This document shows positions 6,910 through 27,636 of a stretch of 46,434 nt of DNA, in pieces. Within the stretch, counting starts at the first letter, position 1. Each line of letters opens with the position of its first letter. The notes beneath the pieces are model-generated. The model searched no databases. It had not been told where the DNA came from and saw nothing but the letters and a program-made list of their open reading frames with translations. This DNA comes from Kiritimatiellia bacterium (GTDB taxonomy: Bacteria; Verrucomicrobiota; Kiritimatiellia; RFP12; UBA1067), in assembly GCA_051884935.1 (NCBI GenBank), contig JBJEWG010000150.1, forward strand, positions 1 through 46,434. Direction: 5' to 3'. A program made the position numbers and the translations under genes.

Positions 6910-6975
6910 AAAAAGAGACCGAAGAGTCCAATCTTCTCAAGGTTGCTTGACGTGTGGTTAATCATTCTATCCCCG

Positions 6976-9187: not shown

Positions 9188-9675
9188 ATGCAGCGGCAGA
9201 AATCCGTGATGCTCGCGCTCGAGAACATGGGCGCGTGGGTCGCCATACAGCCGTGGAGGCTCGACCTCTGGCTCATCGACGCCGGAGGCGAACAGTTCGA
9301 GACCATCACGTCGTTCTGCCGCGCCGCTGCCAGTGGCACGAGGCCGCCGCGCTCGGCCAGAGGGCCACGAAGGACGAGGCGCTGGTGGCCGCGTTCAAGG
9401 CCCTCGCCACCGAGGCGGCCCTCAGGACGGACGCGAAGACGGCGGTCGGCTTCGTCGAATCGGCGATGGCGATCACCGACCGGCTCCAGCGGGAGCGCGA
9501 GCTCGGCCTCAAGGCCCGCGCCCAGGCGACGAGGGACGACCAGCTCAGGCTCGCGCGCGAGAAGTTCGAGGCCGCCGAGAAACGGCTCAGCGCCGCCACG
9601 AAGGCCGTCACGGACGAGACGCTCACCGACGAGCAGCGCGTGGAGAGAATCAAGGGGATCTTCGGCGTCAGATGA
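9188..9675 (+). pseudogene. Phage protein upstream of terL (small-terminase position), frameshifted near 9330
   Basis: High-GC3 coding runs in one frame from ATG 9188 (MQRQKSVMLALENMGAWVAIQPWRLDLWLIDAGGEQFETITSF). From about 9335 it runs in another frame (HEAAALGQRATKDEALVAAFKAL...RVERIKGIFGVR, stop 9675). The stop overlaps the terL start (ATGA). Confidence 0.45.
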
Positions 9676-12499: not shown

Positions 12500-12666
12500 G
12501 CGCGCGCTGCCCACAGGACGGCGGCTTCGTCGGCGACGCCGGCTGCACGCACCCCAACCACGAGCACAGCGCGCTCGTGAAAAGGTTGGGGGGCCTTCCG
12601 TCTGCCCCCGCCGATTCCGACGCTACTGGTGAACGGCCCATGGCTTCGCGGCGGAACCGGCGGTGA
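12496..12666 (+). CDS. Short ORF after the portal gene, possibly the remnant 5' end of a replaced gene
   Basis: ATGA overlap with the portal stop. The first 28 codons (MSARCPQDGGFVGDAGCTHPNHEHSALV) have near-100% GC3; composition then collapses. Confidence 0.25.
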   Translation: MSARCPQDGGFVGDAGCTHPNHEHSALVKRLGGLPSAPADSDATGERPMASRRNRR

Positions 12667-12697
12667 TTGTACCACATCAAACCCGGACGGACAACCA

Positions 12698-13264
12698 CTA
12701 GAGGAAAGGAAAGATCAAATGATCACCTGTACGCTTTGCGCAATACTTGCGGTACTCGCCGCCGAGTGCCTTCTCGCACTTTCGTACGTCGTCGTCCGTC
12801 GCGTCCTTGCCGAGCGTGACGGACATGAGCACGTCCCCGAAACTCTCATGGTCGGATTCCAGGCCCTCGGCGATCAGACGTTTGCACTGCCGCCCAATGC
12901 GGGCGTGAAACTTCGTTTCGTCGGGAAGCTCGACGAAGAACGAGTGGAGCTGGTCGGGGTCTACGCCCCTGAAGCCATCGAACGGAACGCGGAGTGTGGC
13001 CGCATCGCCCGGCTCAATCCCCACCACCGCTGGTTCCCCTTTGAAGTCCACAGGTTCGACCTCGACGAAATCCCCGTCCAGACAGTGGAGATTTGCTCCT
13101 ACGGTCCTGATGGACACGGTCCTGCGCCCGCGATTATGGATCCGGAGCGCGACCACTTCGTATATCCCGCCGTCTCGGATGAGAACGAGCGCGCGCCTGA
13201 CGGAAAGCGCGACGCGGGCGGCTCTGGGCGGAACCCCGTTCAAAACCTCCGCCAAGGCGTTCAA
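12698..13264 (-). CDS. Reverse-oriented hypothetical protein (moron candidate) inside the head module; competes with antisense + ORF 12720-13360
   Basis: 188-aa ORF (TTG start) with somewhat better Lys/Asp/Gly/Glu codon choice than the + ORF. However, the + ORF has a GGAAAGGAAAG ribosome-binding site and a TAATG junction to the next gene. Unresolved. Confidence 0.4.
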   Translation of the reverse strand: MNALAEVLNGVPPRAARVALSVRRALVLIRDGGIYEVVALRIHNRGRRTVSIRTVGANLHCLDGDFVEVEPVDFKGEPAVVGIEPGDAATLRVPFDGFRGVDPDQLHSFFVELPDETKFHARIGRQCKRLIAEGLESDHESFGDVLMSVTLGKDATDDDVRKCEKALGGEYRKYCAKRTGDHLIFPFL

Positions 13265-13359
13265 AAACGCGCGGCGCGCTCCGGGCGGGCGCGGAGACGG
13301 CGGGCGCGCGGACGCGCCACAGGGGCGTTTTCGGCGGTCTGCGGAGAGGGGGGCGAATA

Positions 13360-14241
13360 ATGAAGGCTGACGGCAAAGGCCTCCCGGAGGCCGTGAAGGC
13401 GGGCGACGTCCTCGCGGGCGTGCTCATCTGCCCGTTCGGCGAGTTCCCGCACGGGGAGACCATCCAGGTGTGCGACCACGACGCCTTCGTGCGGCTCGTC
13501 GCCCGGTGGCGCGTCGCCGGCGCCAAGGAGGTCCTCTGCGACTTCGAGCACGCGAGCGAGGTGGACCGGGTGGACTCGGACACGCGCGCGGCGGCGTGGA
13601 TCGCGAACCTCGCCGTGTCGAGGGACGGCCTCGTCGGCGACATGAAGTTCACCGACGAGGGCGCGGCGGCGGTCTCGAACCGGCGCCTGCGGTTCCTCTC
13701 GCCCGTGTGGACGCTCGGCCCCGACGGCCGGCCCCGGTCGCTGCGGTCCGTCGCGCTCACGAACCGCCCCAACATCCACGGCGAGCCCGTCCTCAACAAG
13801 GAACCCGCTTCCAACCAGAACCCAAAACCCGAAAAGGAGAACGCGAAGATGGAGAAGATCAAGGAGCTGCTGGGCCTCGCGCCCGGCGCGACCGACGAGG
13901 AGGTCCTCGCCGCCGTGGGGCGGATGCGGGACGAGCTCGCCGAGGCGCGGAATGAGAGGGAGGCCGCCGAGGCCGAGGCCTTCGCCGAGGAGAACAAGGC
14001 GAAGTGCAGCAAGGATGCGCTGAAGGGCGCCTACCTCATGAACAAGGAGGCCGCGAAGGCGCTCGTCGCGGGCATCCCGGCCGCCCCGGCGAAGGCGGAG
14101 GCCCCGGCGCAGGTGCTCCTCAACAAGGGCGGCGCCGCGACGCCGGCGATCCCCCGCGCGGGCGACCCGCGCGCCGAGATGGCCGCGCTGCCCGCATCGA
14201 AGCGCGCCGCGTACTACGAGGCCCACAAGGGCGAATTCTGA
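13360..14241 (+). CDS. Mu gpI-like prohead protease fused to a coiled-coil scaffold region
   Basis: N-terminal motifs CPFGEFPH, DFEH and AAWI resemble the Mu-like prophage protein I family. The C-terminal half is an A/E/K-rich coiled coil. Confidence 0.8.
   Translation: MKADGKGLPEAVKAGDVLAGVLICPFGEFPHGETIQVCDHDAFVRLVARWRVAGAKEVLCDFEHASEVDRVDSDTRAAAWIANLAVSRDGLVGDMKFTDEGAAAVSNRRLRFLSPVWTLGPDGRPRSLRSVALTNRPNIHGEPVLNKEPASNQNPKPEKENAKMEKIKELLGLAPGATDEEVLAAVGRMRDELAEARNEREAAEAEAFAEENKAKCSKDALKGAYLMNKEAAKALVAGIPAAPAKAEAPAQVLLNKGGAATPAIPRAGDPRAEMAALPASKRAAYYEAHKGEF
13849..14241 (+). CDS. Nested in-frame scaffold ORF (Mu gpZ-like arrangement)
   Basis: Internal in-frame ATG at 13849, preceded by AAGGAG at 13834-13839, exactly at the start of the coiled-coil half (MEKIKELLGL...). 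Confidence 0.4.
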   Translation: MEKIKELLGLAPGATDEEVLAAVGRMRDELAEARNEREAAEAEAFAEENKAKCSKDALKGAYLMNKEAAKALVAGIPAAPAKAEAPAQVLLNKGGAATPAIPRAGDPRAEMAALPASKRAAYYEAHKGEF

Positions 14242-14269
14242 CGAACCGAACAGGAAAGGAAAGGAAGAC

Positions 14270-15148
14270 ATGGCACTCACAGCACCCGGCCTGACGCTCT
14301 CCATCGAGGCGCTCTTCGGCCACATCAAGCCCCAGCTGGACGTCGTCCGCCGCATGGGCTTCACCGACTTCTCGAAGGCCGACCCCGGCATCGAGATCAA
14401 GCCCGGCGCGACGATCAAGTACCCGCTCTCGTCCGTCGACGCCGCGAGCGTCTACGACGAGTCGACGAACAACTACCTCACGGGCGGCTCGACCGCCTGG
14501 GGCACGCTCACGGCGACGCACTACCTCCAGGGCTTCGACCTCAAGGGCGTGAACATCGACGAGGGCGTGAACGCGGGCCGCATCCGGCAGCTCTTCGCGG
14601 CGCGCGCGGGCGCGGGCATCGCCTGGGCCGTCAGGAACGCGGTGAAGACGTCCCTCGACGGCGCGACCGCCTCCACGGCGGTGACGCTCAAGGCCGCCCC
14701 CGCGCTCGCGGACTACGACGCGCTCGGCGAGGGCGTCGGCTGGCTCGACAAGGCGAACGCCACGCTCGTCGTGAACGGCGCGGAGTGGGCGAAGATCAAG
14801 GGCGTCCTCCACGGCGCGCACCTCTCCGCCACGCCGGCGGCCGCCGCCGAGGAGCTCGGCTTCCGCGAGCTCGTCGTGCTCCCGGACCTGACGGCGCGCG
14901 CGGTGATCGTGCCCTTCAGCTCGGTCGGCTTCATCGCCCGCGTCCCCGCGATCGTCGCGAATTACCCCGAGTCGGGCGCGGAGACGGACGAGGACTCCGG
15001 CCTCTCCGTGGGGATCGTCGTCGCCGACGACCAGGCGAAGAACCGCCAGGTGGTGAACGCCGACCTGTGGTTCGGCGTGGCCCTCATCTCGGCGAGCGCG
15101 AACGCCACCACCTCGAAGGGCGCCATCAAGGTGGGCACCGCGAGCTGA
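14270..15148 (+). CDS. Major capsid protein (Mu gpT-like, HK97 fold)
   Basis: 292 aa, follows the protease/scaffold gene. Ribosome-binding site GGAAAGGAAAGGAAG. Very high GC3. Confidence 0.8.
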   Translation: MALTAPGLTLSIEALFGHIKPQLDVVRRMGFTDFSKADPGIEIKPGATIKYPLSSVDAASVYDESTNNYLTGGSTAWGTLTATHYLQGFDLKGVNIDEGVNAGRIRQLFAARAGAGIAWAVRNAVKTSLDGATASTAVTLKAAPALADYDALGEGVGWLDKANATLVVNGAEWAKIKGVLHGAHLSATPAAAAEELGFRELVVLPDLTARAVIVPFSSVGFIARVPAIVANYPESGAETDEDSGLSVGIVVADDQAKNRQVVNADLWFGVALISASANATTSKGAIKVGTAS

Positions 15149-15210
15149 CGGGGAATCCGCCGCGCGCCCACAGGGCCGTTTCCCGCGCCATCGAGGCGCG
15201 CGGCCAACGG

Positions 15211-15240
15211 ACACATCGAGGCGCGCGGCTTCAGCCGCGC
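15211..15240 (+). repeat. 30-nt hairpin-containing repeat, copy a (intergenic, after the capsid gene)
   Basis: acacatcgaggcgcgcggcttcagccgcgc. Stem GCGCGGC/GCCGCGC, loop TTCA. Matches copy d at 29 of 30 positions. A 16-nt partial copy lies at 15189-15204. Confidence 0.8.
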
Positions 15241-15258
15241 AGACGAAAGGATACAGCC

Positions 15259-15684
15259 ATGTGGCGAAAGATCACGAAGGAGGACCTCCACGCGACCCTC
15301 TCCGAGCAGGAGATCCGCGCATTCGGCCAGACCGACGCCTTCGACGCATCCGCCGTCGAGCGCCAGGTCGCCAACACCGTCGCCGCCGTCCGCGGGTTCG
15401 TCCGCTCCGGACGCAGGTGCCGCATGTCCCCCGACGAGTCCACCCTCCCCGAGATGCTCGTCTCCCCAGCAATGGACGTCGCCGCCTTCAACCTCCTCAA
15501 GCGCTTCAACCGCGTCCCCAACGAGGCCCGGACGAAGGCCGCCGAGCGCGCCCAGGACCTCTTCGAGAGGATCGCCGCCGGCGCCGTCGTCCCCGAGGAC
15601 CACGGCGAGGAGCCCGCCGACGCGAGCCCCGCCGCCGCCGCCCCCGCGTTCTCGCCCCCCAGCCCAGTCCGCCTCCTCGACTAG
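15259..15684 (+). CDS. Head-tail connector protein, Mu gp36/DUF1320-like
   Basis: 141 aa. Starts MWRKITKEDLHATLSEQEIRAF, typical of the DUF1320 family in position and size. Ribosome-binding site GAAAGGA. Confidence 0.65.
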   Translation: MWRKITKEDLHATLSEQEIRAFGQTDAFDASAVERQVANTVAAVRGFVRSGRRCRMSPDESTLPEMLVSPAMDVAAFNLLKRFNRVPNEARTKAAERAQDLFERIAAGAVVPEDHGEEPADASPAAAAPAFSPPSPVRLLD

Positions 15685-15692
15685 GAAGACCC

Positions 15693-16115
15693 ATGGACCT
15701 TCAGGAACTCCAGAGCCGCGTCTCCGCGCGCGTCCGCGAAATCCCCCTCCTCGTCGGCCTCCCCGTCTTCGACGAGGACAGGGGCAACGTCGTCGAGAAC
15801 GTCCGGCAGGAGATCGCGAAGTCGAGCTTCTGCGTCGTCGTCGGCGCCCTCTCGTTCACGGACGAGGCCCCCGACGCCTCCCGCTGCTACGGAACCGCCC
15901 GCGTCGCGATCTCCGTCTTCGAGGACCCCATGCTCAACCGCGCCGGCGCCGGCCGCCCCACCTTCCTCGCCGCCGCCCAGGAGATCGCCCGCGCCCTCAA
16001 GCTCTTCGACACCGGCGACGGCGTCCTCACCTCCCCCGCCATCTCCGCCGCCGAGAACGTCGGCGGGGGCGTCGTCGCGCTCACCGTCACCCTCTCCCTC
16101 AAGACCACCCTCTAG
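15693..16115 (+). CDS. Head-tail adaptor or tail terminator-like phage protein
   Basis: 140-aa ORF between the connector and tube genes with high GC3. Function inferred from position only. Confidence 0.5.
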   Translation: MDLQELQSRVSARVREIPLLVGLPVFDEDRGNVVENVRQEIAKSSFCVVVGALSFTDEAPDASRCYGTARVAISVFEDPMLNRAGAGRPTFLAAAQEIARALKLFDTGDGVLTSPAISAAENVGGGVVALTVTLSLKTTL

Positions 16116-16129
16116 AAAGGAACCCACAC

Positions 16130-17050
16130 ATGGCCACCACACGCCAGTCCATCGTCCGCGGCCCCGGCACCGTCACGTTCAACGGCGTCAGGCTCTTCGA
16201 CGCCTCCGGCGTCTCCGCCGAGATCGACTCCGCCACGGGCGAGATCCCCTCCTCCATCGCCGGGACCCTCGACGTCATCAAGACCGACCAGGTCGGCAAG
16301 GTCTCCCTCACCCCCGTCGGCAGCCTCTCCGAGGACCTCCTCGCCGTCCTCTACCCCGCCTGGGCCCGCGTCCCGGAGATCGGCCGCTCCGTCCTCGGCG
16401 CCGCCGACCAGCCCCTCGTCGTCGCCTCGAAGGCCGGCGTCAAGGTCACGTTCGCCGCAGCCGCCCTCACCAAATGCCCCGACCTCCTCCTCTCGCCGGT
16501 CAAGACCGCCTTCGGCCCCGCCGAGTTCTCCGCACTCGTCGCGAACGGCAGGCTCCCCTCCGAGGCGGGCGCCCTCCACACCGTCGCCTCCGCCGCCTAC
16601 GCCGACGGCGAGCCGCCCCGCGACGGCCTCTCCGGCTTCCACTACCAGGGCTCCTACGGCTCCCTCTCCATCCCGGACACCCTCGACGGCTGGACCGTCT
16701 CCGTCGAGCTGGGGCTCGAGCCCGTCCACACCGACTCGCAGGGCACCATCGACTACACCCTCTCCGGCGTGAACGTCACCGCCCGCTGCACCCCGCTCGG
16801 GCTCTCCGAGGCGCAGATCCTCGCCGCCCTCCCCGTCGGCCTCGGCCGCGGAGCCTCCCTCGCCACCGCCAGCGACCTCGTCGTCTCCGCCAAGGGCGGC
16901 CTCAAGGTCACGCTCAAGTGCGCCTCGCTCCTCACCGGCCCCCTCAACTGGGGCGCCACCGCCCTCCGCGCCGGCGAGCTCGGCTTCCGCGCGAACGTCG
17001 ATCCCGCCACGGGCTCACTCTTCGACGTCGCCCTGCAGGGGGACGAATGA
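16130..17050 (+). CDS. Major tail tube protein (non-contractile tail)
   Basis: 306 aa immediately upstream of the chaperone-position gene and the tape measure. Internal duplication (GVKVTFAAAALTKCP... and GLKVTLKCASLLTGP...). No sheath gene present. Confidence 0.6.
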   Translation: MATTRQSIVRGPGTVTFNGVRLFDASGVSAEIDSATGEIPSSIAGTLDVIKTDQVGKVSLTPVGSLSEDLLAVLYPAWARVPEIGRSVLGAADQPLVVASKAGVKVTFAAAALTKCPDLLLSPVKTAFGPAEFSALVANGRLPSEAGALHTVASAAYADGEPPRDGLSGFHYQGSYGSLSIPDTLDGWTVSVELGLEPVHTDSQGTIDYTLSGVNVTARCTPLGLSEAQILAALPVGLGRGASLATASDLVVSAKGGLKVTLKCASLLTGPLNWGATALRAGELGFRANVDPATGSLFDVALQGDE

Positions 17051-17421
17051 CCATCTCCCTCGGCTCCGCCGTCCTCTGCGCCGGTCAGGCCCGCAGCGCG
17101 ACGGGCTCCCCCGTGGGGCCCTCGGGGCTCGCGGTGGAGATCGCGCCGGGCGTGGAGGCGCGCGAGTTCGTCGGCGCCGACCGCGTCCAGCCGGAGCACG
17201 TCAGATGCGACCACGGCGTCGTCTCCTTCGGCGTCACGCGCACGTTCCCCTCGGTCGCCGCCGCCCTCGCGTGGATCGCCGGGCCGTTCGTCTCGGAGGC
17301 GAGCGAGGGCGAGCTGAAGTTCGACGGCGCGCGCGTCTTCGGCCCGAAGTCGGCCGTCACGAGCCGCCGCTGCTCCCACGTCGGCTGCACCGTCGCCGTC
17401 ACCTACACCATCGAGGGCTAG
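17047..17421 (+). CDS. Tail assembly chaperone-position protein
   Basis: 124 aa. ATGA overlap with the tube gene, directly before the tape measure. Confidence 0.45.
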   Translation: MTISLGSAVLCAGQARSATGSPVGPSGLAVEIAPGVEAREFVGADRVQPEHVRCDHGVVSFGVTRTFPSVAAALAWIAGPFVSEASEGELKFDGARVFGPKSAVTSRRCSHVGCTVAVTYTIEG

Positions 17422-17424
17422 ACA

Positions 17425-18876
17425 ATGGCGGACGACGGGAACGTGGACATCCGGATCAGGGTCAGGGCGGACACGGCTCCGGCCGACAAGGCGAAGAGGG
17501 CCGTCGAGTCGGTCGGCGCCGCCGCGAGGACCGCCGCCGAGTCGTCGAAGGGCGGCTTCGAGCGGTTCAAGGGCGCCGTCGGCAGGGCCACGAGCGCGGT
17601 GGGCGCGCTGCGCGGCGTCCTCGCCGGCTTCGGCGCGGCGGGCCTCGTCGCCCCGCTCGTCGGCGCCTTCCGGAACTGGCGCAAGTCCATCGCCGAGACG
17701 GAGAAGAAGCTCCAGGACGCGCGCAGGGCCGCCGCCGAGGCCGCCGACGCGAAGGCCGTCCGCGAGATGGCCGAGGCCTGGGGCGAACTGAAGGACGCGG
17801 TCAACGCCGCGAACGAGGCCCGCCAGCGGGGCCGCGAGCTCCTCGACGAGGAGGTGCGCCTCCGCCGCGAGGAGGAGGACGCGCGGACCGACCTCGACGA
17901 GCGCAGGGCCCTCGCGGCGATCGACCCCGAATCGCCGAGCGCCGCCGCCGAGCGCGCCGCCGTCTCCGCCCGCTTCGCCGCGCGCCGCTCCGAGACGAAC
18001 GCCTCCCGCAGGGGCGAGGACGTCGTCCTGCGCCGCCAGGCGCTCGACGAGGAGGCCCGGGGCGCCGCCTCCGCCGCGGACGCGCTCGCGGGGCAGCTCC
18101 CCGCCGCCGACCGCGCGATCCTGCGCGCGCGCACCCGCGCCTCCACCCTCGACGCCCTCTCCCGCGAGCGCAACGACCGCGACGGAACCTGGTACAATCC
18201 GAGGAAGCGCACCGAGGAGGGCGACGCCGAGCGCGGGCGGATGCGGGCCGAGGCCGAGCGGGCCCGCGAGCAGGTCCGCGCGCTCGAGCGCGACCGGGAC
18301 GCGAAGGCGCGCGAGATCGCCGCCCTGCGCGCGAAGGCCGAGCACGCGAACGCCCGCCGCGACCTGCTCGGCGGGGCCCTCGCGACGGCCCAGACGCGCC
18401 GCGAGGCCGACGCGCTCGGCGCCGCCCAGACCGTGGGGGAGGCCGACCGGCAGCTCGCCCGGGGCCGCGCCGCCGAGGCCGCGCGGGCCGAGCAGGCCCG
18501 CCTCGAACGCGACCGCGCCGCGAAGGCCGGGAAGCTCGCGGCCCTCCAGGCGCGGGCCGACAGTCAGATCGCCGGGGCCGACGCGCGCGTCTCGCGCGAG
18601 GAGCTGGAGGCCGAGGCGGCCCGCCGGAACCTCGCCGGATTCGACGCGACCGTGGGCGCCCGCCGCACCGGCGTCGCCTCGGCGCGCGCGGCCCTCGCCG
18701 CGCAGGTCGAGCGCGAGGAGGGCGACGTGCGCGCCGCGCAGGAGGACGCCCGCGCGATCCGCTCGAACCTCGGCGCGCTCATCCAGTCGCTCAGGAACGA
18801 GATCGCCGCCATCGAGCGCGACCTGCGCGCCGCGAAGAGCCGCCAGAACTTCAGCGAGTCGGAGGCGCAGCCGTGA
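17425..18876 (+). CDS. Tail tape measure protein
   Basis: 483 aa. Gly-rich hydrophobic segment GVLAGFGAAGLVAPLVGAF followed by a long A/R/E coiled coil. Canonical position. Confidence 0.7.
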   Translation: MADDGNVDIRIRVRADTAPADKAKRAVESVGAAARTAAESSKGGFERFKGAVGRATSAVGALRGVLAGFGAAGLVAPLVGAFRNWRKSIAETEKKLQDARRAAAEAADAKAVREMAEAWGELKDAVNAANEARQRGRELLDEEVRLRREEEDARTDLDERRALAAIDPESPSAAAERAAVSARFAARRSETNASRRGEDVVLRRQALDEEARGAASAADALAGQLPAADRAILRARTRASTLDALSRERNDRDGTWYNPRKRTEEGDAERGRMRAEAERAREQVRALERDRDAKAREIAALRAKAEHANARRDLLGGALATAQTRREADALGAAQTVGEADRQLARGRAAEAARAEQARLERDRAAKAGKLAALQARADSQIAGADARVSREELEAEAARRNLAGFDATVGARRTGVASARAALAAQVEREEGDVRAAQEDARAIRSNLGALIQSLRNEIAAIERDLRAAKSRQNFSESEAQP

Positions 18877-20684
18877 CCGTCGCCGAGAACGGGGCCATCG
18901 CGCCGCGCGCGGACGCGGCCTTCGCCTTCGCCGTGGACGGGACGCGGTTCTTCCCCCAGGCGGGCGCGCGCCTCTCGTTCGCCTCGCGCACCGCCGCGAC
19001 GCTCCACCTCCCCGGCCTCCCGCAGGGCCTCGTCGCCCCCGGCGCGGAGGTGACGGCCACCTTCAACGGAGAGACGGTCTTCCGGGGCACGGCGGAGAGG
19101 ATCGTCACGCGCCGCCGGCGCGGCCTCGTCGTCGAGGACGTGACGTGCCGCGACGCCTGGGACCTCCTTGAGCGGCGCGTCTACCGCCAGGCGTGGCGCG
19201 TCGCCGCCGCGGACGGGACGGCCGTCGAGACCTCCACCGCCCGCGTCGTCCTGAACGTGGACGCGGACGGCCTGCCCATCCCACTCGCCGAGCAGGTGAC
19301 GGAGATCTGCTCGGCGGGCGGGCTCATGGCCTCCGACGGCGGGATCCCGGCGGCGACGCTCCCCGCGGACGAGGCGCGCGACGTCACGTGCGCGGACGCG
19401 ATCCGCCGCGCCCTCCGGCTCTTCCCCCAGGTGGTCGCCGCCTACGACGCCGCCTACGACGCCGTCGCCTTCCGCGTCCCCGCCGCCGGGGACGCCGCCT
19501 ACATGGCGGGCCCGCTCCTCTCCCGCGCGACGACGCGCACGGCCCACCCCGTCGTCGGCGTGGACATCGCGACCGAGTCGGTCGACACGAGCGTCGTCTC
19601 GCCGGAGACGGGCCTCGCCGTCGCCTCGCGCGCCGTCACGCACCAGACCGCCGGGGACGTCGCATCCGACGACTGCCTCCACGTCTACCTCCCCCTCGCG
19701 GGCGGCGCGTCCTCCACCTCGTGGGAGTCGCTCGTCGTGGAGACGGAGGAGATGCCCGCCCTCCAGAACGCGCCGTTCTGGCAGCGCAAGCACCACCGCC
19801 TCGCGAACGTGCCCGCATCCGCGATCACGATCACCGAGGCCGGGCGCAGCTCCACCAAGTACGACAAGATCACCTCGAACGACGTGGGCGCGCTCCGCGC
19901 GTTCGGGCTGAACGCCGAGGTCGTCCACTGCCACTGCAAGGCGACGGTCAAAACCGCCGACGACGTGGAGGAGGAGCTCTACCTGACGATGGACTTCGCG
20001 ATGACGGACGCCTCGCCGGGCCGCCACACGCGCCAGACGGGCAGCTCCTCGACGGCGGCGGAGACGCTGCCCGAGGGGCTCGCGGCGGCCATCCTCGCCC
20101 AGCGCGGCGGCGCGGTCGAGGCGGAGGACGTCTCGATCGTCGTCGGAGAGGCGTTCCCCCGGATCGGCGACTCGTTCGGCGGGCTCGTCCTCCAGAGCTT
20201 CGACGTGGACTGCGCGACCCTCGTCGCGAACCTCCACTTCGGCCACCCGGACTACCTGACGCCGGAGGACATGCGCGACCTGCTGAACGGCTTCCGCGCG
20301 CGCGGCTCCGCCGCGAACGTCCCCCACCGCGCCGAGAGCGACCTCGGCGCCGACGCGACCCCCGTCGCGGGCGGGGTGATGCCCCTCACGACGACCGAGT
20401 TCTGCCCCGGCGTGAAGGCGAAGACCACCGTCAAGTCGTCGAGCGGCGGCGGCTCGATCGTGCTCGACGCGGCGGCGGTGGGCGCCGGGAAGTCGCTCGC
20501 CGTCCGCGAGCTCACCTACACCCCGTCCGGCGGCTCCGCCACGACGCTCAAGGTGCTCGCGGAGGATGACGTGGAGCTCCCGCCGGGCGGCGGGGGCGGC
20601 GCGGAGCACGCCGCCGAGCCGGACACGAACGCGACGTTCACGGAGAGGGACGGCAAGATCGTGGTGGGGGTCTACTACCTATGA
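18873..20684 (+). CDS. Distal tail or tail hub protein
   Basis: 603 aa. GTG start overlaps the tape-measure stop (GTGA). Function inferred from position. Confidence 0.55.
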   Translation: MTVAENGAIAPRADAAFAFAVDGTRFFPQAGARLSFASRTAATLHLPGLPQGLVAPGAEVTATFNGETVFRGTAERIVTRRRRGLVVEDVTCRDAWDLLERRVYRQAWRVAAADGTAVETSTARVVLNVDADGLPIPLAEQVTEICSAGGLMASDGGIPAATLPADEARDVTCADAIRRALRLFPQVVAAYDAAYDAVAFRVPAAGDAAYMAGPLLSRATTRTAHPVVGVDIATESVDTSVVSPETGLAVASRAVTHQTAGDVASDDCLHVYLPLAGGASSTSWESLVVETEEMPALQNAPFWQRKHHRLANVPASAITITEAGRSSTKYDKITSNDVGALRAFGLNAEVVHCHCKATVKTADDVEEELYLTMDFAMTDASPGRHTRQTGSSSTAAETLPEGLAAAILAQRGGAVEAEDVSIVVGEAFPRIGDSFGGLVLQSFDVDCATLVANLHFGHPDYLTPEDMRDLLNGFRARGSAANVPHRAESDLGADATPVAGGVMPLTTTEFCPGVKAKTTVKSSSGGGSIVLDAAAVGAGKSLAVRELTYTPSGGSATTLKVLAEDDVELPPGGGGGAEHAAEPDTNATFTERDGKIVVGVYYL

Positions 20685-21709
20685 TCGGCGCGCGCGACCA
20701 GTACGCCTTCGTGGACCTCTCGCAGGTCCCGGAGATGCGGATCGACGGCGGAATCCTGCCCGCGCGCGACGTGGCGGCCGACGGCTCGTGGCGCGTCCTC
20801 AGGGGCGAGGACGCGGCGTTCCTCCAGGAGGCCGCGCGCGAGCGCGTCCAGGCCGCCACCGGCGCGACCGTCCCCCCGCACGCGATGACGCGCGTCCTCT
20901 CGGCGGACCGCATGGAGGACGCGCGCGGGCGGCTCGCCGCCTGCGCCTCGCTCCACGGCTACTGCAAGGACCCGCCGGAGGACGCCCAGGCCATCGACGG
21001 CCTCGACGCCTTCGCGACGGCGGCGACGGCCCACGGCCTCGCGTGGAGCGACGGGGAGCCCGCGCTCCCGGCCTTTGGCGCGTTCCGCGCGCTGCGGGCG
21101 GACGACGTGCGCGCGCTCTTCCGCGCCGTCTCCCGCCTCCGGCAGTTCGAGGTCCACGGCGCGCCGTTCGGCATTTCAAACGGGGCGGGCGCGGAATACG
21201 CCGTCGAGCTCCACGAGGAGAGGCCGGGCGCGAACGCGGCGGCGAGCGCGCCGCCCCTGGGGCTCGTCGAGCACGTCTGCGACGACGCCTGGCGCGGCAC
21301 GAGCCGCGAGGAGGTGTGCTTCGCGCGCGACGCCGTCGTGGCGGGCGGCGACTGGTCGCTCACCGTCCCGGAGGCCGCGCGGCCGTGGATCGCCTCCGTC
21401 CGCGCATTCGTCCGCCTGCGCTACGCGTCCGTCGAGACGCCGCCGGGGGGCGCGGCGGCGGAGACCTCGGACTACATCGTCGCGCCCGTCGAATCCGCGT
21501 TCTCGGACGGGGTGTGCGCGGTCGCGCGCGCGTCCCTCGTCGATGCGGCCCAGGCGGCGCGCGCCCGGCGCGGCTACGTCCCGCGCGCCCTCGGAAGCGG
21601 CTGGAGCCAGGTGAACCGCGTCTCGGCGGACGGCCTCTCGTTCATCTGCTCGCTCACCGGCCACACCGACTTTTCCGGCATCGGCTGGACCTGGCAGCCG
21701 AACAACTGA
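20681..21709 (+). CDS. Phage tail protein, unknown function
   Basis: 342 aa. ATGA overlap with the upstream gene. High GC3. Confidence 0.5.
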   Translation: MIGARDQYAFVDLSQVPEMRIDGGILPARDVAADGSWRVLRGEDAAFLQEAARERVQAATGATVPPHAMTRVLSADRMEDARGRLAACASLHGYCKDPPEDAQAIDGLDAFATAATAHGLAWSDGEPALPAFGAFRALRADDVRALFRAVSRLRQFEVHGAPFGISNGAGAEYAVELHEERPGANAAASAPPLGLVEHVCDDAWRGTSREEVCFARDAVVAGGDWSLTVPEAARPWIASVRAFVRLRYASVETPPGGAAAETSDYIVAPVESAFSDGVCAVARASLVDAAQAARARRGYVPRALGSGWSQVNRVSADGLSFICSLTGHTDFSGIGWTWQPNN

Positions 21710-21735
21710 AGACTTGAACCCAAATGGAGGAGAAC

Positions 21736-22594
21736 ATGGCAGACGAGGAGAACGCGGCGGCGGTGCCGCTCAGGTGGACGGTCGAGACCTCCCGCGCCCA
21801 GGCCGCCCGGTTCGAGGCCTTCCGGGGCGAGACGCTCGCCCTTGAAGCCACGCTGAAGACGTATGGAAACCCCCTTGAAACGGACCTGAAACCGTCTCTG
21901 CACTGGCAGACGCCCGGGATGGGGGACGCGTGGTGGACGGCCCCCGCGACGGCGGAGGGGGGCGTGCTGCGGGCCGCGTTCACGCCCGAGATGGACCCCG
22001 GCGCGCCGATGGTCGTGGGCTTCATCGGCGTTGCGGGCGGGATCTGGCGCGCCGCGTTCGCGATCCGCTTCCGCCACGCCCCCGGCGCGCACCCGAACGA
22101 GATCGACCTCCCCCCCGCGCGAGATCGACTTCGCGACGGTCGTCGTCCGCAACGCCCCCTGGGCCACCCCCGCCGACGTCGCCGCGCTGACGTCCGGCAA
22201 GCTCGACAGGGCCGACGTGCGCTACAGGCTGCACGAGGTGGACCTGGGCGGCTACATCAAGCTTCTCGAAGACCGCGCAGTCAACGTGTTCTCGTCGTCC
22301 GAGACGGTCAGGGTCACGCCGCCGCGCCCGTCGGAAGGCGGACGCGCGCGCGACCTGCTCGTCGTCGCGACGCTCTCCAACGGCGCGGGCGTCACGTTCG
22401 ACGTCAACGACGATATGGTCTGCCTCGTCAGCTACGTGACGGAGGACGCGGACGCGCTCGCCGCCGAGGACGGAATCAACGTCTACTCGCTCACCGAGAT
22501 CATGCCGGCCACGGCTGACCATCGCGCGATGTTCCTCGTCGCGCGCAGGACCGTGGCCGAATTCGACCCGATGACAACCCCAGCGGAGGCCTGA
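21736..22594 (+). pseudogene. Tail-region protein interrupted by a +1 frame change at a C7 homopolymer
   Basis: High-GC3 coding switches frame exactly at CCCCCCC (22110-22116). A C6 tract would read ...HPNEIDLPPREIDFATVVVRNAPW... as one protein of about 285 aa. GGAGGAG ribosome-binding site before ATG 21736. Confidence 0.6.
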
Positions 22595-22596
22595 AG

Positions 22597-23076
22597 ATGA
22601 ACCGAGACTTTGGAAAACTGGCAGACGGCAGAATCACCTACGCCCCGCGCGTCGTCATGACGGAGGCCGGGCTCGCCACGCGCCCCACGGCCGCCGACTA
22701 CCTCGCGGCGGGCTATAAGCGAATCATCGACACGCCGCCGCCCGTCGAGGCTGGCGGCTTCAGCCGCCCATCCGGCTGGCTCGAAGCCGCCGATACCATT
22801 ACCCGCCGGTACGAGACCGTCGCGGCGCCGCCGCCCGCGCCGCGCGTCTTCTCGAAGCTGAAGTGCCACCTCGCGCTCAAGGCCGCCGGGCACTGGCCCG
22901 CAGTCAAAGCGTGGCTGGAGGCGAACGACCTCTGGGACGCCTTCCTGCTCGCGCAGGACGTCCGCGAGGACGACGAGCAGTTCACGGCGGGCGTCGCCGC
23001 GCTGAAGGCATCTCTCGGCCTCTCCGACGACGACGTGGAGAAACTGCTCGCCGCGTGCGTGCTGGAGGGCGCGTGA
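22597..23076 (+). CDS. Phage protein, unknown function (tail-fibre-accessory position)
   Basis: 159-aa ORF. Contains hairpin repeat copy b at 22742-22769. Confidence 0.5.
   Translation: MNRDFGKLADGRITYAPRVVMTEAGLATRPTAADYLAAGYKRIIDTPPPVEAGGFSRPSGWLEAADTITRRYETVAAPPPAPRVFSKLKCHLALKAAGHWPAVKAWLEANDLWDAFLLAQDVREDDEQFTAGVAALKASLGLSDDDVEKLLAACVLEGA
22742..22769 (+). repeat. Hairpin repeat, diverged copy b (inside a CDS, in a different reading frame from copy c)
   Basis: ccgtcgaggctggcggcttcagccgccc. Hairpin GGCGGC-TTCA-GCCGCC. Shares tcgaggc..gcggcttcagccgc with the other copies. Confidence 0.5.
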
Positions 23077-23077
23077 G

Positions 23078-23773
23078 ATGCTGATCGGTTCGAGACTGTC
23101 CATGACGGGCGGCGGCGCCGCCGCCAAGACGAGGCGGTACGCGGAGTACTATCTCAGAATCGCGGACGGCACGATCAAAGAGATATGCGACGAGGACACG
23201 ACGATAATCGGAGATTATGTGTTCCAATATTTAAACAAACTCGCGCGTGTGGACTTCACGAACTGCACGACAATCGGCAAATATTCGTTCAGCGAATGCA
23301 CCAGCCTTGCGAGCGTGGACTTTCCGAACTGCACGTCCATCAACCAAAGTTCGTTCAGCGGCTGCACCAGCCTTGTAAACGTCAACATTCCGAAAATCTA
23401 TTCGGTCGGCAACAGGTCGTTCATCGGCTGCACCAGACTTGCGAGCGTGGACTTCCCGAACGTCACATACACGAACATCTACGCGTTCAGCGGCTGCACC
23501 GGCCTTACGCGCGTTAACATGCCGAAGTTGTGGGATATTAGTGAAAACTCGTTCAGGAATTGCACTAAACTGAATCTGCTCCGCATGGACGGGATATCGG
23601 AAGTGACGACGTTGTCCAACACAAACGCATTCTATAACACGCCTTCGACGATGAGGATCGTCGTGCCGGACGCGCTCGTGGACGCGATGAGGGCCGCGCC
23701 GAAATGGAGCGACTACGCCGACCGCATCGTCGGCGTGACGGAATACGACGCCGCGAACGGAGGCGCCCGATGA
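23078..23773 (+). CDS. BspA-type leucine-rich repeat protein (likely receptor-binding or adhesin module)
   Basis: Five tandem 22-23-aa repeats: FSECTSLASVDFPNCTSI, FSGCTSLVNVNIPKI, FIGCTRLASVDFPNVT, FSGCTGLTRVNMPKL, FRNCTKLNLLRMDG. GC is clearly lower than in neighbouring genes. Confidence 0.75.
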   Translation: MLIGSRLSMTGGGAAAKTRRYAEYYLRIADGTIKEICDEDTTIIGDYVFQYLNKLARVDFTNCTTIGKYSFSECTSLASVDFPNCTSINQSSFSGCTSLVNVNIPKIYSVGNRSFIGCTRLASVDFPNVTYTNIYAFSGCTGLTRVNMPKLWDISENSFRNCTKLNLLRMDGISEVTTLSNTNAFYNTPSTMRIVVPDALVDAMRAAPKWSDYADRIVGVTEYDAANGGAR

Positions 23774-24201
23774 CCGTCGCCGAATGCCGCGAGCTGCTCG
23801 CCCGCGCGCGCGCCCTCGGCCTCTCCGGGGCCGGCGAGGCCGCCGCCCACCCCGTCGAGTGCCTCGCGCGCGACTGCAACGGCATCGGCCCGGAGTGGCT
23901 CCCCGCACCCGCGCGCGAGCTCCTCGACCGCCTCGCCCCGGACCTCCGCCCCGCCGCGCTGGTCCACGACTTCCGCTGGTCCCACTCCGACGGCTCCCGC
24001 GCCGCCTTCGACGCATCCAACCGGGAGCTTGAGGACAACTGCGCCATCGTCGCGCGCTCCTTCCCCTGGTGGAACTGGCGGCGGTACGCCCTGCGCCACC
24101 TCGGCGTCGCCTTCGCCGACGTCTGCTCCCGCCACGGCCTCCCCGCCTACCTCATGGCGCACGCTTCAACCACAACCGAAAACAAAGGAAAACAGACATG
24201 A
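23770..24201 (+). CDS. HD-motif phage protein (DUF1353-like, phospholipase A2-like motifs)
   Basis: 143 aa. NGIGPEWL loop followed by RPAALVHDFRWS, resembling DGASIP...HDxxY of DUF1353 and the YxGxG...HDxxY logic of PLA2 enzymes. From memory only. Confidence 0.45.
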   Translation: MTVAECRELLARARALGLSGAGEAAAHPVECLARDCNGIGPEWLPAPARELLDRLAPDLRPAALVHDFRWSHSDGSRAAFDASNRELEDNCAIVARSFPWWNWRRYALRHLGVAFADVCSRHGLPAYLMAHASTTTENKGKQT

Positions 24202-24749
24202 AGAAATCCCTCGTCGCCCTCGCCGCCGCGCTCGCGCTCGCCGGCTGCACCTCCTCCACCCGCATCGAGTGGGGCGGCCGCACCGCCCTCCGCAACCCCG
24301 ACGGCTCCGTCCTCCTCGACGCATCCGGCGCCCCGCACTACGAGACCGCCCCGAATATCTACAGGGACGCCAACTGGCTCACCCGCCGCGAGGAGCGCGA
24401 CGTCTCCGTCAGCGTCAACGCCGACGGCTCCTACTCCGCCGGCATCGGCGCGCGCGTCAACGACGTCTCCACGAACGGCGTCGCCATCGTCACCGGCGGC
24501 CTCGACGCCACCACGCGCCTCGTCTCCACCGTCGCCGCCGCCTACGCCTCCATATCGGGGGGCGCGGCTTCAGCCGCGACCGTCGTTGACGTCGCCCGCT
24601 CCGTCTACAGGGCGTTCGCTTCGGCCGGCGGCGACCCCGCGAAGGCCACCGTCTCCGCCGGGGGCGGCTCCCTCGCCGTCTCCGACGGATCCGTCTGCAC
24701 CGAGTGCGACGCGGCCGGCAACTGCACCGCCGGCGCCTGCCGCGAGTGA
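24198..24749 (+). CDS. Phage-encoded lipoprotein with Cys-rich C-terminus
   Basis: Lipobox LALAGC. C-terminus SVCTECDAAGNCTAGAC. ATGA overlap with the upstream gene. Contains hairpin repeat copy c. Confidence 0.6.
   Translation: MKKSLVALAAALALAGCTSSTRIEWGGRTALRNPDGSVLLDASGAPHYETAPNIYRDANWLTRREERDVSVSVNADGSYSAGIGARVNDVSTNGVAIVTGGLDATTRLVSTVAAAYASISGGAASAATVVDVARSVYRAFASAGGDPAKATVSAGGGSLAVSDGSVCTECDAAGNCTAGACRE
24550..24579 (+). repeat. 30-nt hairpin repeat, copy c (inside the lipoprotein CDS)
   Basis: ccatatcggggggcgcggcttcagccgcga, about 26 of 30 identical to copy d. Confidence 0.7.
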
Positions 24750-24754
24750 CCGCC

Positions 24755-25948
24755 ATGACCCCGGCAGAAGACGTCCTCCGCAGGAGCCTCGCCGCCTCCG
24801 GCCTCCCGTCCGCCGGGTGGTCCGCCCTCCCGGCGGCCATCCGCGACCGCGCCTTCTTCTCCTCGCGCGTCGAGTCCGTCCGGTTCCTCGACGCCGCCCG
24901 CGCCCGCGTCGCCGAGCTCCTCGCCGGCGCCCGGAACGCCGACGGCGCCATCACCTCCCGCGCACAGGCCGTCTCGGACGTCATGCGCGCCGCGCGCGAC
25001 GCCGGAATCGCGACAGGGAAGGGCGGCCTCCAGGACCCCGGCTCCGCCGCGCGCGCCGCCCTCGTCGTCGAAACCAACGCCGCCATGGCCGCCGGACGCG
25101 CCGCCGCCGAGATCTCAAACTCCTACGGCGCCCGCCTCGCCTTCCCCGCCCAGGAGCTCGTCCGCGTCGAGGCGCGCGCCCGCCCGCGGAACTGGAGGGC
25201 GATCTGGACCGCCCGCGGCGGCGTCCTCCGCGACGGCCGCATGGTCGCCCTCAAGGGCGACCCCGTCTGGACCGCCATCTCGCGGTTCGGCCACCCCTAC
25301 CCCCCCTTCGACTTCAACTCCGGCATGGGCCTCGACGACGTCTCATTCGACGACGCCGTCGCCCTCGGCCTCATCGAGCCCTCCTACAGGCCCCCCGTTG
25401 AATCCCCCCTCAAGGCCTTCAACGACGGCCTTGAAGCCGACTTGAAGGTCGGCGACGGCCGCCTCCTGGGGGAGCTCAGGAAGATGTTCGGCGACCAGAT
25501 CCGAAACGACAACGGCGTCATCCGCTGGCGCCAGGACCTCATCCGCGACGCCTTCACCTCCGGCAAACCGTTCTCGATCAAACTCGGCGAGGCGTCCGGC
25601 GACCTCCTTTCCAGAATCCCGGCTTCGGTGCCGGCGCAGTCGCTGGCGGGCAAACCGCTCACGATCACGCAGGACTGGCTGGACCGCAAGCGGAAGGACG
25701 GGACGGACCACCGCGCGCACTTCGCCCCGATCGAAGCGCACCCGGGGGACATCCCACTCACGCTCTCCGACCTCGAACTTCTCCCGGAGATATGGCGACG
25801 ACCCGACAAGGCCGAGAAGGTCGGCAAGCACAGGATCATGCTGTCCATGGGCGCGAGCGACGGCGGAACCTACAGGGCCGTCGTCGATTACGAGGGAAGA
25901 CCTCAGCTTAAAACCTTCTACAAGGAGGGTGAAAAGAAGGGCCCGTGA
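24755..25948 (+). CDS. MuF-like minor head protein with C-terminal nuclease-like (PBECR/BECR-type?) extension
   Basis: ARAALVVETNAAMAAGRAAAE and the downstream FGHPYPPFDFNSG resemble the Phage_Mu_F/SPP1 gp7 core. The C-terminal 100 aa (DHRAHFAPIEAHPGDIPLTLSDLELLPEIWRRPD...YRAVVDYEGRPQLKTFYKE) resemble phage BECR-fold toxin modules. Confidence 0.6.
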   Translation: MTPAEDVLRRSLAASGLPSAGWSALPAAIRDRAFFSSRVESVRFLDAARARVAELLAGARNADGAITSRAQAVSDVMRAARDAGIATGKGGLQDPGSAARAALVVETNAAMAAGRAAAEISNSYGARLAFPAQELVRVEARARPRNWRAIWTARGGVLRDGRMVALKGDPVWTAISRFGHPYPPFDFNSGMGLDDVSFDDAVALGLIEPSYRPPVESPLKAFNDGLEADLKVGDGRLLGELRKMFGDQIRNDNGVIRWRQDLIRDAFTSGKPFSIKLGEASGDLLSRIPASVPAQSLAGKPLTITQDWLDRKRKDGTDHRAHFAPIEAHPGDIPLTLSDLELLPEIWRRPDKAEKVGKHRIMLSMGASDGGTYRAVVDYEGRPQLKTFYKEGEKKGP

Positions 25949-26065
25949 AGCCTTTCAAGCGCGAGGGGAAGACCGAGGTCTTCGCCCTGCATAATGCAGG
26001 AAAAGAAGCACGAGCCCGGAACGCCTCCCAGTATACCACCACCCACCCGCCAAATCAACCGCCCC

Positions 26066-26095
26066 ACATATCGAGGCGCGCGGCTTCAGCCGCGC
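26066..26095 (+). repeat. 30-nt hairpin repeat, copy d
   Basis: acatatcgaggcgcgcggcttcagccgcgc, ending 20 nt before ATG 26116. Copy a ends 18 nt before ATG 15259. Confidence 0.8.
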
Positions 26096-26115
26096 CACCA
26101 GCCCCCACGCCAGCC

Positions 26116-26580
26116 ATGCCCGTCTCCGTCTCCATCGACATCCCGCGCCTCGAAGCCTCCCGCAAGGCCGCCGAGAAGGTCCTCGGCCGCCTCTCCACAC
26201 CGGAAGCCCGCAAGGCCGTCATCGACAAGGGCAACGCCGCCCTCGTCGAAGCCCTGCGCCGCCACTTCGCCGAGCGCGAGCGCGAACCGCAGAGGACCGC
26301 CGGCTTCCCCTGGTTCGGCCAGCCACACCCAAAGAGCTACTTCTGGCGCGGCGCGCGCGGCGACTCCGTCTCCGAACGCATCGCCTACCAGTCGTCGCCC
26401 GACCGCATGGAGGGCCTCGTCTCGATCCAGTCTCCCGCCCTCGCCCACAAGCTCGACCCCAACCCGCCGCCAATCACCCCAAAGGGCGGACGCCGCTGCC
26501 TCGCCATCCCCGCCAGCCCAGCCGCCGCGTCCTGGCGCCCCATGCCCCGCGACTTCCCCGGCGGCCTCAGGTTCGCCTTC
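26116..26580 (+). pseudogene. Phage virion-associated protein, 3'-truncated at a rearrangement junction
   Basis: Plausible sequence MPVSVSIDIPRLEAS...PKGGRRCLAIPASPAAASWRPMPRDFPGGLRFAF. Beyond about 26580 the frame becomes S/A-rich antisense of the convergent coiled-coil gene, with no stop until 26811. Confidence 0.45.
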
Positions 26581-27636
26581 TCCCGCTCCGCCTCGAGCTT
26601 CCTCTCGGCGGCCTCGCGGGCGGCCTTGAGCTCGTCCTCTGCCTTCATGCGCTTCGCCTTCTCGTCGAGCTGGAGGGCCTCCGCGCGCTTGTCGAGGACG
26701 CCCTGCTGGCGGTCGAACTCGTCGCGCTCGGCCTCGATCCTGTCCAGCGCCTGCTCGAAGTCGAGCCGCTTCGCGCGCGCGGCGTCCACGCGCCCCGTGA
26801 GCTCCTTGTAGCGGTCTGACTTCATGAAGCCCTCGACGGCGCGGTCTCCGGCTATCCGGCGGTCCGCGTCGGATGCCGTCATATACGCCAGCGCGCCGTT
26901 TCCGGCGACGTATGCCGTTCCGAGCGCGGACTTCTCGGCCTGTTCGCGCACGTCCCGGACGGCCTTCGCGAGCGCGTCCTCCTCGGCCTTGACGACCTTC
27001 TGCGCGTCCTCCCAGTCCTTCCACCCCGCGTCCACGGCGGCCTCCGCGTCCCTCCTCTTGCGCGCGAGCTCGTCGAGCTCGCCGGCCATCTTCGTGCGGG
27101 CGGCGTTGGCGTCCGATTCGCCGATCTCCCTTTGGATGCGCTCGGCCGCGCCCGCGTCGCCGCGCCGCATGGCCTCGATCTTCTGGATTTCGAGCTTCTT
27201 CTTCGCGAGCTCGTTGGTGGCGTCCACCTCCTCCTTGATGGCGCGGAGGCGGTCGTTCGATTCCCTGATGGATGCCTGGCGCGCCTGCTCGGTCTTCTCG
27301 ATGAGTCCGTCGATGGACTTCATGCGCTCCTCGTGCGCCTTCTTCTCGGCCTCCGCGATCGCCTTCGCCGCCTCCTCGGCTGAGTTCTTCCACGCCATGA
27401 ACGCATCGACGCCAATACATAACGCCCCAAATGCCGCCCTTGAGGACATTCTGAATGAAATCTCCAACAAGGCCGCCGAATGTGCCAAGATGAGAACTAA
27501 ATTTCTTGATCGAATTCCCCGCTTCATTGACCTGAGCTGTCAACTGCTTCGCCTGCTGCGCGGTGTCTGCGAACCCGCTTCCCTGCGCGGCGCTCTTGAG
27601 CAGAATGTTTACAATGCCATTCATATTGCCACACAA
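26385..27636 (-). pseudogene. Tape-measure-like membrane-anchored coiled-coil protein; frameshifted at about 27420, with the 3' end lost at the 26580 junction
   Basis: The N-terminal 70 aa (low GC) are in one frame: MNGIVNILLKSAAQGSGFADTAQQAKQL...NVLKGGIWG. The coiled coil is in another frame: DAFMAWKNSAEEAAKAIAEAEKK...KLEAEREKANL. The architecture parallels the 17425 tape measure (GAFRNWRKSIAETEKK). Confidence 0.55.

Follow-up and report, generated by a model that had tools for sequence, protein, structure and literature searches.

The 46,434-nucleotide window analyzed here, contig JBJEWG010000150.1 from a Kiritimatiellia bacterium, carries a Mu-like cluster of head and tail genes on its + strand. 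The gene at 24755-25948, near the end of that cluster, probably encodes a minor head protein of the Mu gp30 (F) / SPP1 gp7 type that carries a virion-delivered, predicted PBECR3 RNase. Its product combines a divergent MuF core with a C-terminal domain assigned to PBECR3, one of the phage versions (PBECR) of the Barnase-EndoU-ColicinE5/D-RelE (BECR) nuclease module. In close relatives, this C-terminal half is exchanged as a discrete cassette, and no immunity gene accompanies the exchange. The gene was singled out in an earlier note on the same DNA, whose description of the gene, its position, the repeat in the following spacer, and the shortened next gene proved accurate in every part. The gene and its subdivisions are as follows.

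24755-25948, + strand: MuF-PBECR3 gene, complete, stop codon included (open reading frame (ORF), GC content at third codon positions (GC3), homologues, AlphaFold model)
24755-25444, + strand: residues 1-230, divergent MuF core of the Mu gp30 / SPP1 gp7 type (hhalign, Foldseek against BFVD, Akkermansia phage matches)
25445-25561, + strand: residues 231-269, variable middle segment with a conserved FGDQ motif (mean pairwise identity 34%)
25562-25945, + strand: residues 270-397, PBECR3 domain, a predicted metal-independent endoRNase (profile search, hhalign, composition)
25718-25720, + strand: codon of His322, predicted catalytic, in a short helix (conservation, hhalign, model)
25913-25924, + strand: codons of T387-F-Y-K390 in the last beta strand, the (S/T)FYK motif of PBECR3 (conservation; strand 384-391 in the model)

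The gene is real and intact. It lies in an ORF spanning 24704-25948 on the + strand, and its ATG at 24755 gives a product of 397 residues. GC3 is 0.90 and GC content is lowest at the second codon position, as in other genes of this 70% GC window. The product matches ACI4RA_05585, a 'hypothetical protein' from a Kiritimatiellia bacterium metagenome-assembled genome (MAG) at NCBI, with 100% identity over its full length, and contains the C-terminal sequence quoted in the earlier note exactly as given there. It has 543 homologues (clusters at 90% identity), nearly all of about 400 residues and found in Kiritimatiellia and Lentisphaerae metagenomes. Among the matches listed, a precomputed Pfam domain is present in none of 120 homologues, and the few that are named at source are called 'hypothetical protein'. 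A search of PDB sequences with the family profile gave no match. An AlphaFold2 model of the 397-residue protein, built on a 43-sequence alignment, has a predicted local distance difference test score (pLDDT) of 86 and a predicted template modelling score (pTM) of 0.80.

Profile and structure comparisons show residues 1-230 to be a MuF core of divergent sequence, in agreement with the MuF assignment of the earlier note. PF04233 has no match in the window protein, in 43 family members, or in 10 relatives from IMG/VR. The family alignment (A1) was compared with about 100 homologues of Mu gp30, which carry PF04233 and mostly also PF18819; hhalign aligned the two over 311 columns spanning both domains, with a probability of 91.4% and an E-value of 9e-7. 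The core motif PYPPFDFNSGMG lines up with YPPNGWNCRC of Mu gp30 in hhalign, and a single-sequence comparison with Mu gp30 aligned the same motif. When the model was compared with BFVD using Foldseek, the best matches were annotated 'phage head morphogenesis domain', 'minor capsid protein', 'GpF-like', and, in one 943-residue protein, 'nuclease'. The top six have probability 1.0 and E-values of 8e-5 to 3e-3, and named head or capsid matches extend to an E-value of 5e-3. A match to PHROG 220 ('minor head protein and DNA pilot') was obtained for P0111, a member of the family, and in 13 IMG/VR relatives the gene stands directly after the portal gene, the classical MuF position. Among deposited phage genomes, the only matches are the 'head morphogenesis' proteins of three Akkermansia phages (Chambord, Chantilly, and DTMo-2021a), whose hosts likewise belong to the PVC superphylum. 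These matches cover residues 1-250 at 28-32% identity, whereas the C-terminal half of the Akkermansia phage proteins is unrelated to PBECR3 and matches PHROG 4529.

The identity of the C-terminal domain was approached through an exhaustive search of 1.84 billion representative proteins with a profile built from residues 270-397. The search returned 270 matches, and 15 of the 150 listed sit inside proteins of 2,080-5,661 residues. Six matches from outside the family were scanned with Pfam, and all six carry PBECR3 (PF18812) above its gathering cut-off of 30 bits. The best PBECR3 match falls on the profile-matched region in five of them and, in the sixth (P0186), on the other PBECR3 copy of that protein. 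Kinase-PolyVal, LPD3, LPD23, or SNF2-type helicase domains are also present in four of the six, which identifies these as polyvalent proteins of the kind described by Iyer et al. The family C-terminal alignment matches an alignment of 18 such PBECR3 domains with an hhalign probability of 99.2% (E-value 1.2e-19, 119 columns). Within the family, Pfam PBECR3 matches below threshold occur in 15 of 43 members, and a full-length IMG/VR homologue (L012) that is 37% identical to the window protein scores 37.1 bits, above the cut-off. The window protein itself gives no PBECR3 match at E<=1. Because its sequences score below the Pfam gathering cut-off, the C-terminal domain of this family is, on profile comparison, a divergent PBECR3 subgroup.

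The residues expected of an active site are conserved. In PBECR domains, the active site consists of a His in an N-terminal helix together with a C-terminal Ser/Thr (Iyer et al. 2017, PMC5512222). H322 is invariant in all 43 family members. The model puts it in a helix (residues 319-323), and in the alignment it falls on the His of 'H(F/Y)G', a PBECR3 motif. T387 lies in the last strand and is likewise aligned with its PBECR3 motif, (S/T)FYK. The family and the PBECR3 domains (PF18812) of phage and conjugative-element polyvalent proteins, which are homologous, have the motifs H(F/Y), NIPLT, PD, G.Y.L, and (S/T)FYK in common. In 229 domain copies drawn from the family, the representative proteins, and the polyvalent proteins, the His is kept in 225, the Ser/Thr in 228, and a Lys or Arg at the position of K390 in 220. 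The order of secondary structure elements in the modelled domain (extra strands, short helices, and then four strands) resembles the published remodelled BECR/PBECR topology (PMC5512222); this is a resemblance and not a test. Taken over its roughly 125 residues, the sequence evidence shows residues 270-397 to be a PBECR3 domain that keeps the His and Ser/Thr (and Lys) active-site configuration. The earlier note had likened the C-terminus to BECR/PBECR modules, and the profile search now places it in PBECR3.

Polymorphism of the C-terminus behind a conserved MuF core was proposed in the earlier note as a check on its reading, and the outcome is positive. In the close family, mean pairwise identity is 64% over residues 1-230 and 33% over the PBECR3 domain. 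Among 111 full-length members, 30 pairs combine cores at least 90% identical with C-termini at most 40% identical. Cores that are 98-100% identical are joined to C-termini only 20-38% identical: P0044 and P0055 share 99% of the core and 20% of the C-terminus, and the corresponding values for P0031 and P0057 are 100% and 38%. Single linkage at 50% identity places all cores in one cluster and divides the PBECR3 domains into nine. A swapped segment is also visible in DNA. Between the homologous loci L003 and L008, identity is mostly 70-95% in the upstream genes and in the first ~670 nt of the MuF-like gene. It falls to 33-47% at about codon 223, remains there until the short spacer that follows ends, and returns to 80-90% in the next gene. 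Cassette types recombine at a breakpoint around codons 223-230. The cassette also stands out in composition. In the window gene, the PBECR3 region has a GC content of 0.64 and a GC3 of 0.83, against 0.75 and 0.95 in the core, and the L008 cassette also has a GC content below that of its flanks. These alignments show that the PBECR3 half has been exchanged as a discrete cassette in close relatives, with the flanking DNA, including the downstream gene, conserved.

More distant relatives differ in whether they have a C-terminal domain at all. Eighty IMG/VR loci with this core were fetched. The C-terminus is absent in 39 (short forms), is PBECR3 in 12, is some other extension in 25, and is incomplete at a contig end in four. 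Because of this split, we regard the C-terminal module as an optional add-on to a structural core. In one IMG/VR locus (L016, 9914-11212) the same MuF core carries an ADP-ribosyltransferase (ADPrib_exo_Tox, 39 bits) as a fusion, and in another (L036, 9863-11506) it is followed by a weakly metallopeptidase-like region. Eight of ten scanned IMG/VR relatives have C-terminal extensions of 200-420 residues with no Pfam match.

The sequence that follows the gene bears on whether the cassette has an immunity partner. Two features lie there.

25949-26115, unstranded: intergenic stretch of about 168 nt with two small hairpins (repeat search)
26116-26583, + strand: truncated partner gene, the first 156 of about 240 residues (alignment with the L001-L004 products)

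The earlier note reported that no clear immunity gene follows, that 25949-26115 is occupied by a hairpin repeat, and that the next gene is truncated, and each of these statements holds. A 30-nt stem-loop repeat that occurs four times in the cluster has one copy in the spacer, at 26066-26095, which ends 20 nt before the next ATG. The gene that begins there belongs to a family of proteins of about 240 residues, whose 83 homologues are 42-89% identical and lack any Pfam domain. In this copy, homology is lost after residue 156 (about 26583), where the frame continues antisense to a convergent coiled-coil gene; the junction is either a deletion or rearrangement or a mis-assembly of the MAG. Of the other full-length homologous loci, all five with downstream sequence have the 240-residue gene after the MuF-like gene, as do 13 IMG/VR loci. 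It occupies the slot of Mu gene G in several relatives with the canonical order. An identity with Mu G (gp31) was nevertheless set aside, as hhalign with 3 and then 76 sequences gave a probability below 1%, and Pfam and PHROGs returned nothing. In this respect the window differs from Mu, its neighbour gene having no detectable similarity to Mu G.

No small ORF (<150 residues) that could serve as a cognate immunity gene is found after the window gene, and no conserved small ORF occurs within the two swapped cassettes that were compared. Two other candidates were considered and rejected: the downstream gene, which does not co-vary with the cassette, and antisense ORFs in the two cassettes, which are unrelated to each other. 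These results speak to the possibility that the protein is a MuF polymorphic toxin as described by Jamet et al. (2017, PMC5576092), released from lysing lysogens to kill competitors while cognate immunity protects sister cells. The family resembles those toxins in having a variable C-terminal domain behind a conserved MuF core, in exchanging that domain by recombination, in the coexistence of short and long versions, and in having distant relatives with other C-terminal domains, the ADP-ribosyltransferase included. However, an ORF of less than 150 residues comes next after about 89% of MuF toxin genes (PMC5576092), and the gene found here instead encodes the conserved protein of about 240 residues. 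That gene remains 80-90% identical in DNA across the cassette swap and its family shows no excess diversity; the swapped segment stops inside the short intergenic spacer. The variation among close relatives is also between subtypes of PBECR3, with at least four to nine divergent cassettes on near-identical cores, and not between unrelated toxin folds. We consider a toxin-immunity system of this kind quite unlikely.

Mu gp30 is among the closest known counterparts of the protein. Mu gp30 and its orthologues (PF04233 Phage_Mu_F plus PF18819 MuF_C) likewise have a MuF core followed by a PBECR-type C-terminal domain, and belong to a head module with a Mu-type portal, protease, and gp36. In the family alignment, residues 22-208 pair with residues 33-202 of Mu gp30 in the MuF core, and residues ~280-381 pair with residues 318-394, the MuF_C region, in the C-terminal domain. 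The window core is too divergent to be recognized by PF04233. The second difference concerns the catalytic His, which is present in the window protein and absent from Mu gp30, where the alignment has a gap at the family's invariant His. PBECR fused to MuF is the simplest PBECR architecture, and the PBECR copy has been described as inactive in Mu gp30 but active in its orthologues (Iyer et al. 2017, PMC5512222). The gap at the His agrees with that published view. On these alignments, the protein is best described as a distant counterpart of Mu F, collinear with it over both domains and with an intact predicted RNase module.

The same collinearity suggests a different interpretation, in which the protein is purely structural and its C-terminal domain is a non-catalytic RNA- or DNA-binding module like the degenerate MuF_C of Mu gp30. 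The inactivity ascribed to the Mu gp30 copy, the missing immunity gene, and structure searches in which no solved RNase matched significantly all fit such a protein. We nevertheless find it fairly unlikely. The Mu protein has a gap precisely where this family has its invariant His, and the 96-99% retention of His, Ser/Thr, and Lys across the 229 copies holds even between cassettes that are 20% identical, a pattern typical of an active site. Moreover, the domain is not needed for head assembly, because 39 of the 80 IMG/VR relatives do without any.

We favour the interpretation in which the RNase module is delivered by the virion. Its steps are modelled on known MuF proteins (SPP1 gp7 and Mu F) and on Iyer et al. 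2017 (PMC5512222). The MuF core would take the protein into the procapsid at the portal, and the protein would exit the head together with the DNA. In the newly entered cell, the PBECR3 domain would then act as a metal-independent endoRNase on host or phage RNA. An immunity protein might not be required if synthesis comes late, when the producing cell will soon lyse, or if the protein stays inactive until release. Turnover of the cassettes could reflect an arms race in which the RNA target or a host inhibitor is contested.

Several observations weigh against this interpretation. The window protein itself has no match in Pfam (E<=1), PHROGs, or PDB sequences; with Pfam and PHROGs silent on it, both the MuF and the nuclease assignments rest on profile-profile and structure evidence. 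Scores are low within the family as well. Four sub-threshold Pfam PBECR3 matches were inspected and reach 13.6-17.9 bits against the cut-off of 30; all are collinear and lie within the last ~90 residues, and three cover nearly the full model. In the PDB, Foldseek found no match at E<=0.001 to the full model or to the domain predicted on its own (pLDDT 84.6), and the only BECR-type match is the RelE-like RNase toxin BrnT (3u97), with an E-value of 1.4-1.8 and a target template modelling score of 0.45. RNase activity, virion incorporation, and ejection are predictions, for this family and for PBECR3 alike. In this genome, the cluster consists of structural genes only, together with a truncated neighbour, so it may no longer make particles. 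Finally, a sister Kiritimatiellia MAG carries an N-terminally truncated copy of the MuF-PBECR3 gene.

The position of the gene is not the classical MuF position. The phage-like cluster spans about 9.1 to 26.6 kb (9139-26600, 17.5 kb) and contains, in order, a T4-type large terminase, a Mu-type portal, a Mu-type protease, a Mu gp36-like protein, several large proteins without Pfam matches, a BspA-type leucine-rich repeat (LRR) protein, a lipoprotein, and the MuF-like gene. The features that matter for its order are these.

10976-12499, + strand: Mu-type portal gene, start approximate (PF06074 Portal_Mu, E-value 6.5e-32; frame plot)
12500-13359, unstranded: portal-protease interval, the slot of Mu genes F and G (frame plot, ORF scan, tblastn)
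13360 (start), + strand: Mu-type protease gene (PF10123, Pfam)
15259 (ATG), + strand: gp36-like gene (Pfam scan of the cluster)
23078-23773, + strand: BspA-type LRR gene (scan of cluster genes)
24195-24749, + strand: lipoprotein gene (scan of cluster genes)

In Mu, the gene directly follows the portal gene, whereas the window gene starts 12.3 kb past the portal end, after the large tail-region genes and the LRR and lipoprotein genes, and so lies away from the immediate portal-downstream location typical of MuF in packaging modules. The earlier note had remarked on this location and on anomalous sequence in the portal slot. That interval, of about 860 nt, indeed has a weak + strand coding signal, and its sole ORF is on the minus strand (12698-13264). 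A tblastn search of the whole window, with the portal-protease slot included, found no second MuF copy and no MuF relic. The minus-strand ORF would encode 188 residues, has moderate GC3, is Pfam-negative, and resembles a moron.

The same note regarded the gene as displaced in this window, and here the comparison points elsewhere: all four other homologous loci with upstream genes examined have it at the tail end. L001 (DFGM01000142.1), L003, L004, and L089 share the order of tail-region genes, small genes, MuF-like gene, and 240-residue gene (in L001, host genes come next), so the tail-end position is not a local accident. Across IMG/VR relatives with a detectable portal gene, the MuF-like gene is adjacent to the portal in 13, 1.3-6 kb after it in 27, more than 6 kb after it in three, and upstream in three; in the 27 loci of the second group it stands beyond the head genes. 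In the Akkermansia phage Chambord, the MuF-like gene directly precedes the small terminase gene. Within a family that is loosely placed with respect to the portal, the tail-end position of the window gene is at one extreme.

The state of the cluster raises the question of whether the gene still serves a function in this genome. Between 9139 and 26600, only head and tail genes are found, placed between host metabolic and housekeeping genes, and no integrase, transposase, lysis, or regulatory gene was recognized among the cluster genes scanned. To the left lie HGD-D, racemase, and oxidoreductase genes, and to the right lie APH, a C39-like peptidase, an RNase R-type gene, and ABC transporter genes. 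The cluster is either a prophage remnant or an element like a gene transfer agent (GTA). Production of particles in this genome is uncertain because only head and tail genes are present, the last gene is truncated, and a sister MAG has a truncated copy. The gene could be a functionless leftover of a decaying prophage here, whatever the family does elsewhere. The gene content of the cluster, the loss of the next gene at about 26583, an apparent frameshift in the adjacent minus-strand gene, and the N-terminally truncated copy in the sister MAG are what such decay would leave. Yet the ORF has its full length and has lost none of the conserved residues, its GC content by codon position is that of its host-like neighbours, the head and tail ORFs scanned from 9.1 to 24.7 kb all translate open, and the junction at about 26583 could be an artefact of MAG assembly. 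We judge a functionless relic unlikely.

If the cluster is instead a domesticated GTA-like particle system, MuF-PBECR3 would be a particle-delivered RNase, a warhead swapped between lineages with no immunity partner. We hold this to be very unlikely; if true, it would be a head-borne interbacterial effector following rules unlike those of polymorphic toxin-immunity pairs. In the sister MAG (GCA_051884875.1, contig JBJEWD010000017.1; L090, 10001-12549), the N-terminally truncated MuF-PBECR3 gene encodes 303 residues, and a 268-residue methyltransferase-like gene with an NPPF motif is inserted ahead of the 240-residue gene. This locus adjoins restriction-modification, RadC, Fic, and SLFN_AlbA genes.

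The gene does not reveal a new kind of system. The earlier note expected a virion-delivered nuclease effector in a Mu-like element of the PVC type to be new, an expectation that does not stand, since a 2017 paper (PMC5512222) already contains the MuF+PBECR architecture, its predicted activity, and the idea of virion delivery. Another paper of that year (PMC5576092) described MuF proteins whose toxic C-termini vary. The window protein also differs from the polyvalent proteins in which PBECR3 is otherwise found. Those contain many domains, with several effectors in one polypeptide of 2-5.7 thousand residues, whereas the window protein has 397 residues, with a MuF core and a single effector domain. 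What is new is modest: a large branch in the PVC superphylum that current Pfam models miss, its conserved tail-end position, and clean evidence of PBECR3 cassettes being exchanged alone, without an immunity gene. A large unannotated family, the 543 clusters described above, gains a predicted function, and the present MuF and PBECR3 models are seen to overlook the entire PVC-superphylum branch. Near-identical MuF cores bearing divergent PBECR3 cassettes, with no immunity gene travelling along, amount to a natural experiment, and the swapped cassettes provide matched sets of domains for finding the RNA target.

The borders of the element were also considered. No tRNA was found at either border. 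A scan of species-genome contigs with the tail-region protein encoded at 17425-18873 found no relatives. A 200-nt direct repeat (6219-6418 and 27430-27629) encloses a low-GC block and the entire phage-like cluster. Its interpretation as attachment (att) sites was rejected, as the copies are only 75% identical and are the 5' ends of two paralogous minus-strand genes beginning MNGIVNILLKSAAQGSGF (starts at 6413 and 27624). The left paralogue has an in-frame stop at codon 24, and the frame of the right one shifts after about 65 codons into the coiled-coil ORF at 26385-27527. The low-GC block (6000-9000, GC content 0.46-0.55 against ~0.70 elsewhere) contains a minus-strand gene at 6976-8841 for a 620-residue helicase of the Schlafen group 3 type, which looks like a horizontally acquired, defence-type gene beside the cluster.

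Two further observations concern the interior of the cluster. At 21724-22518 (frame 0), coding-type GC3 extends only to about 22000 and is followed by an ORF in another frame (22031-22594), with an overlap of ~490 nt; the region 21724-22594 may contain a frameshift or a mis-called gene boundary among the tail genes. The 30-nt GC-rich stem-loop (core GCGCGGC-TTCA-GCCGCGC) occurs at 15211-15240, 22740-22769, 24550-24579, and 26066-26095, all in the cluster. The copies at 22740 and 24550 lie inside ORFs and are weaker. Those at 15211 and 26066 are 97% identical, are intergenic, and each end 18-20 nt before an ATG (15259 and 26116), which suggests that the stem-loop is an intercistronic RNA signal.

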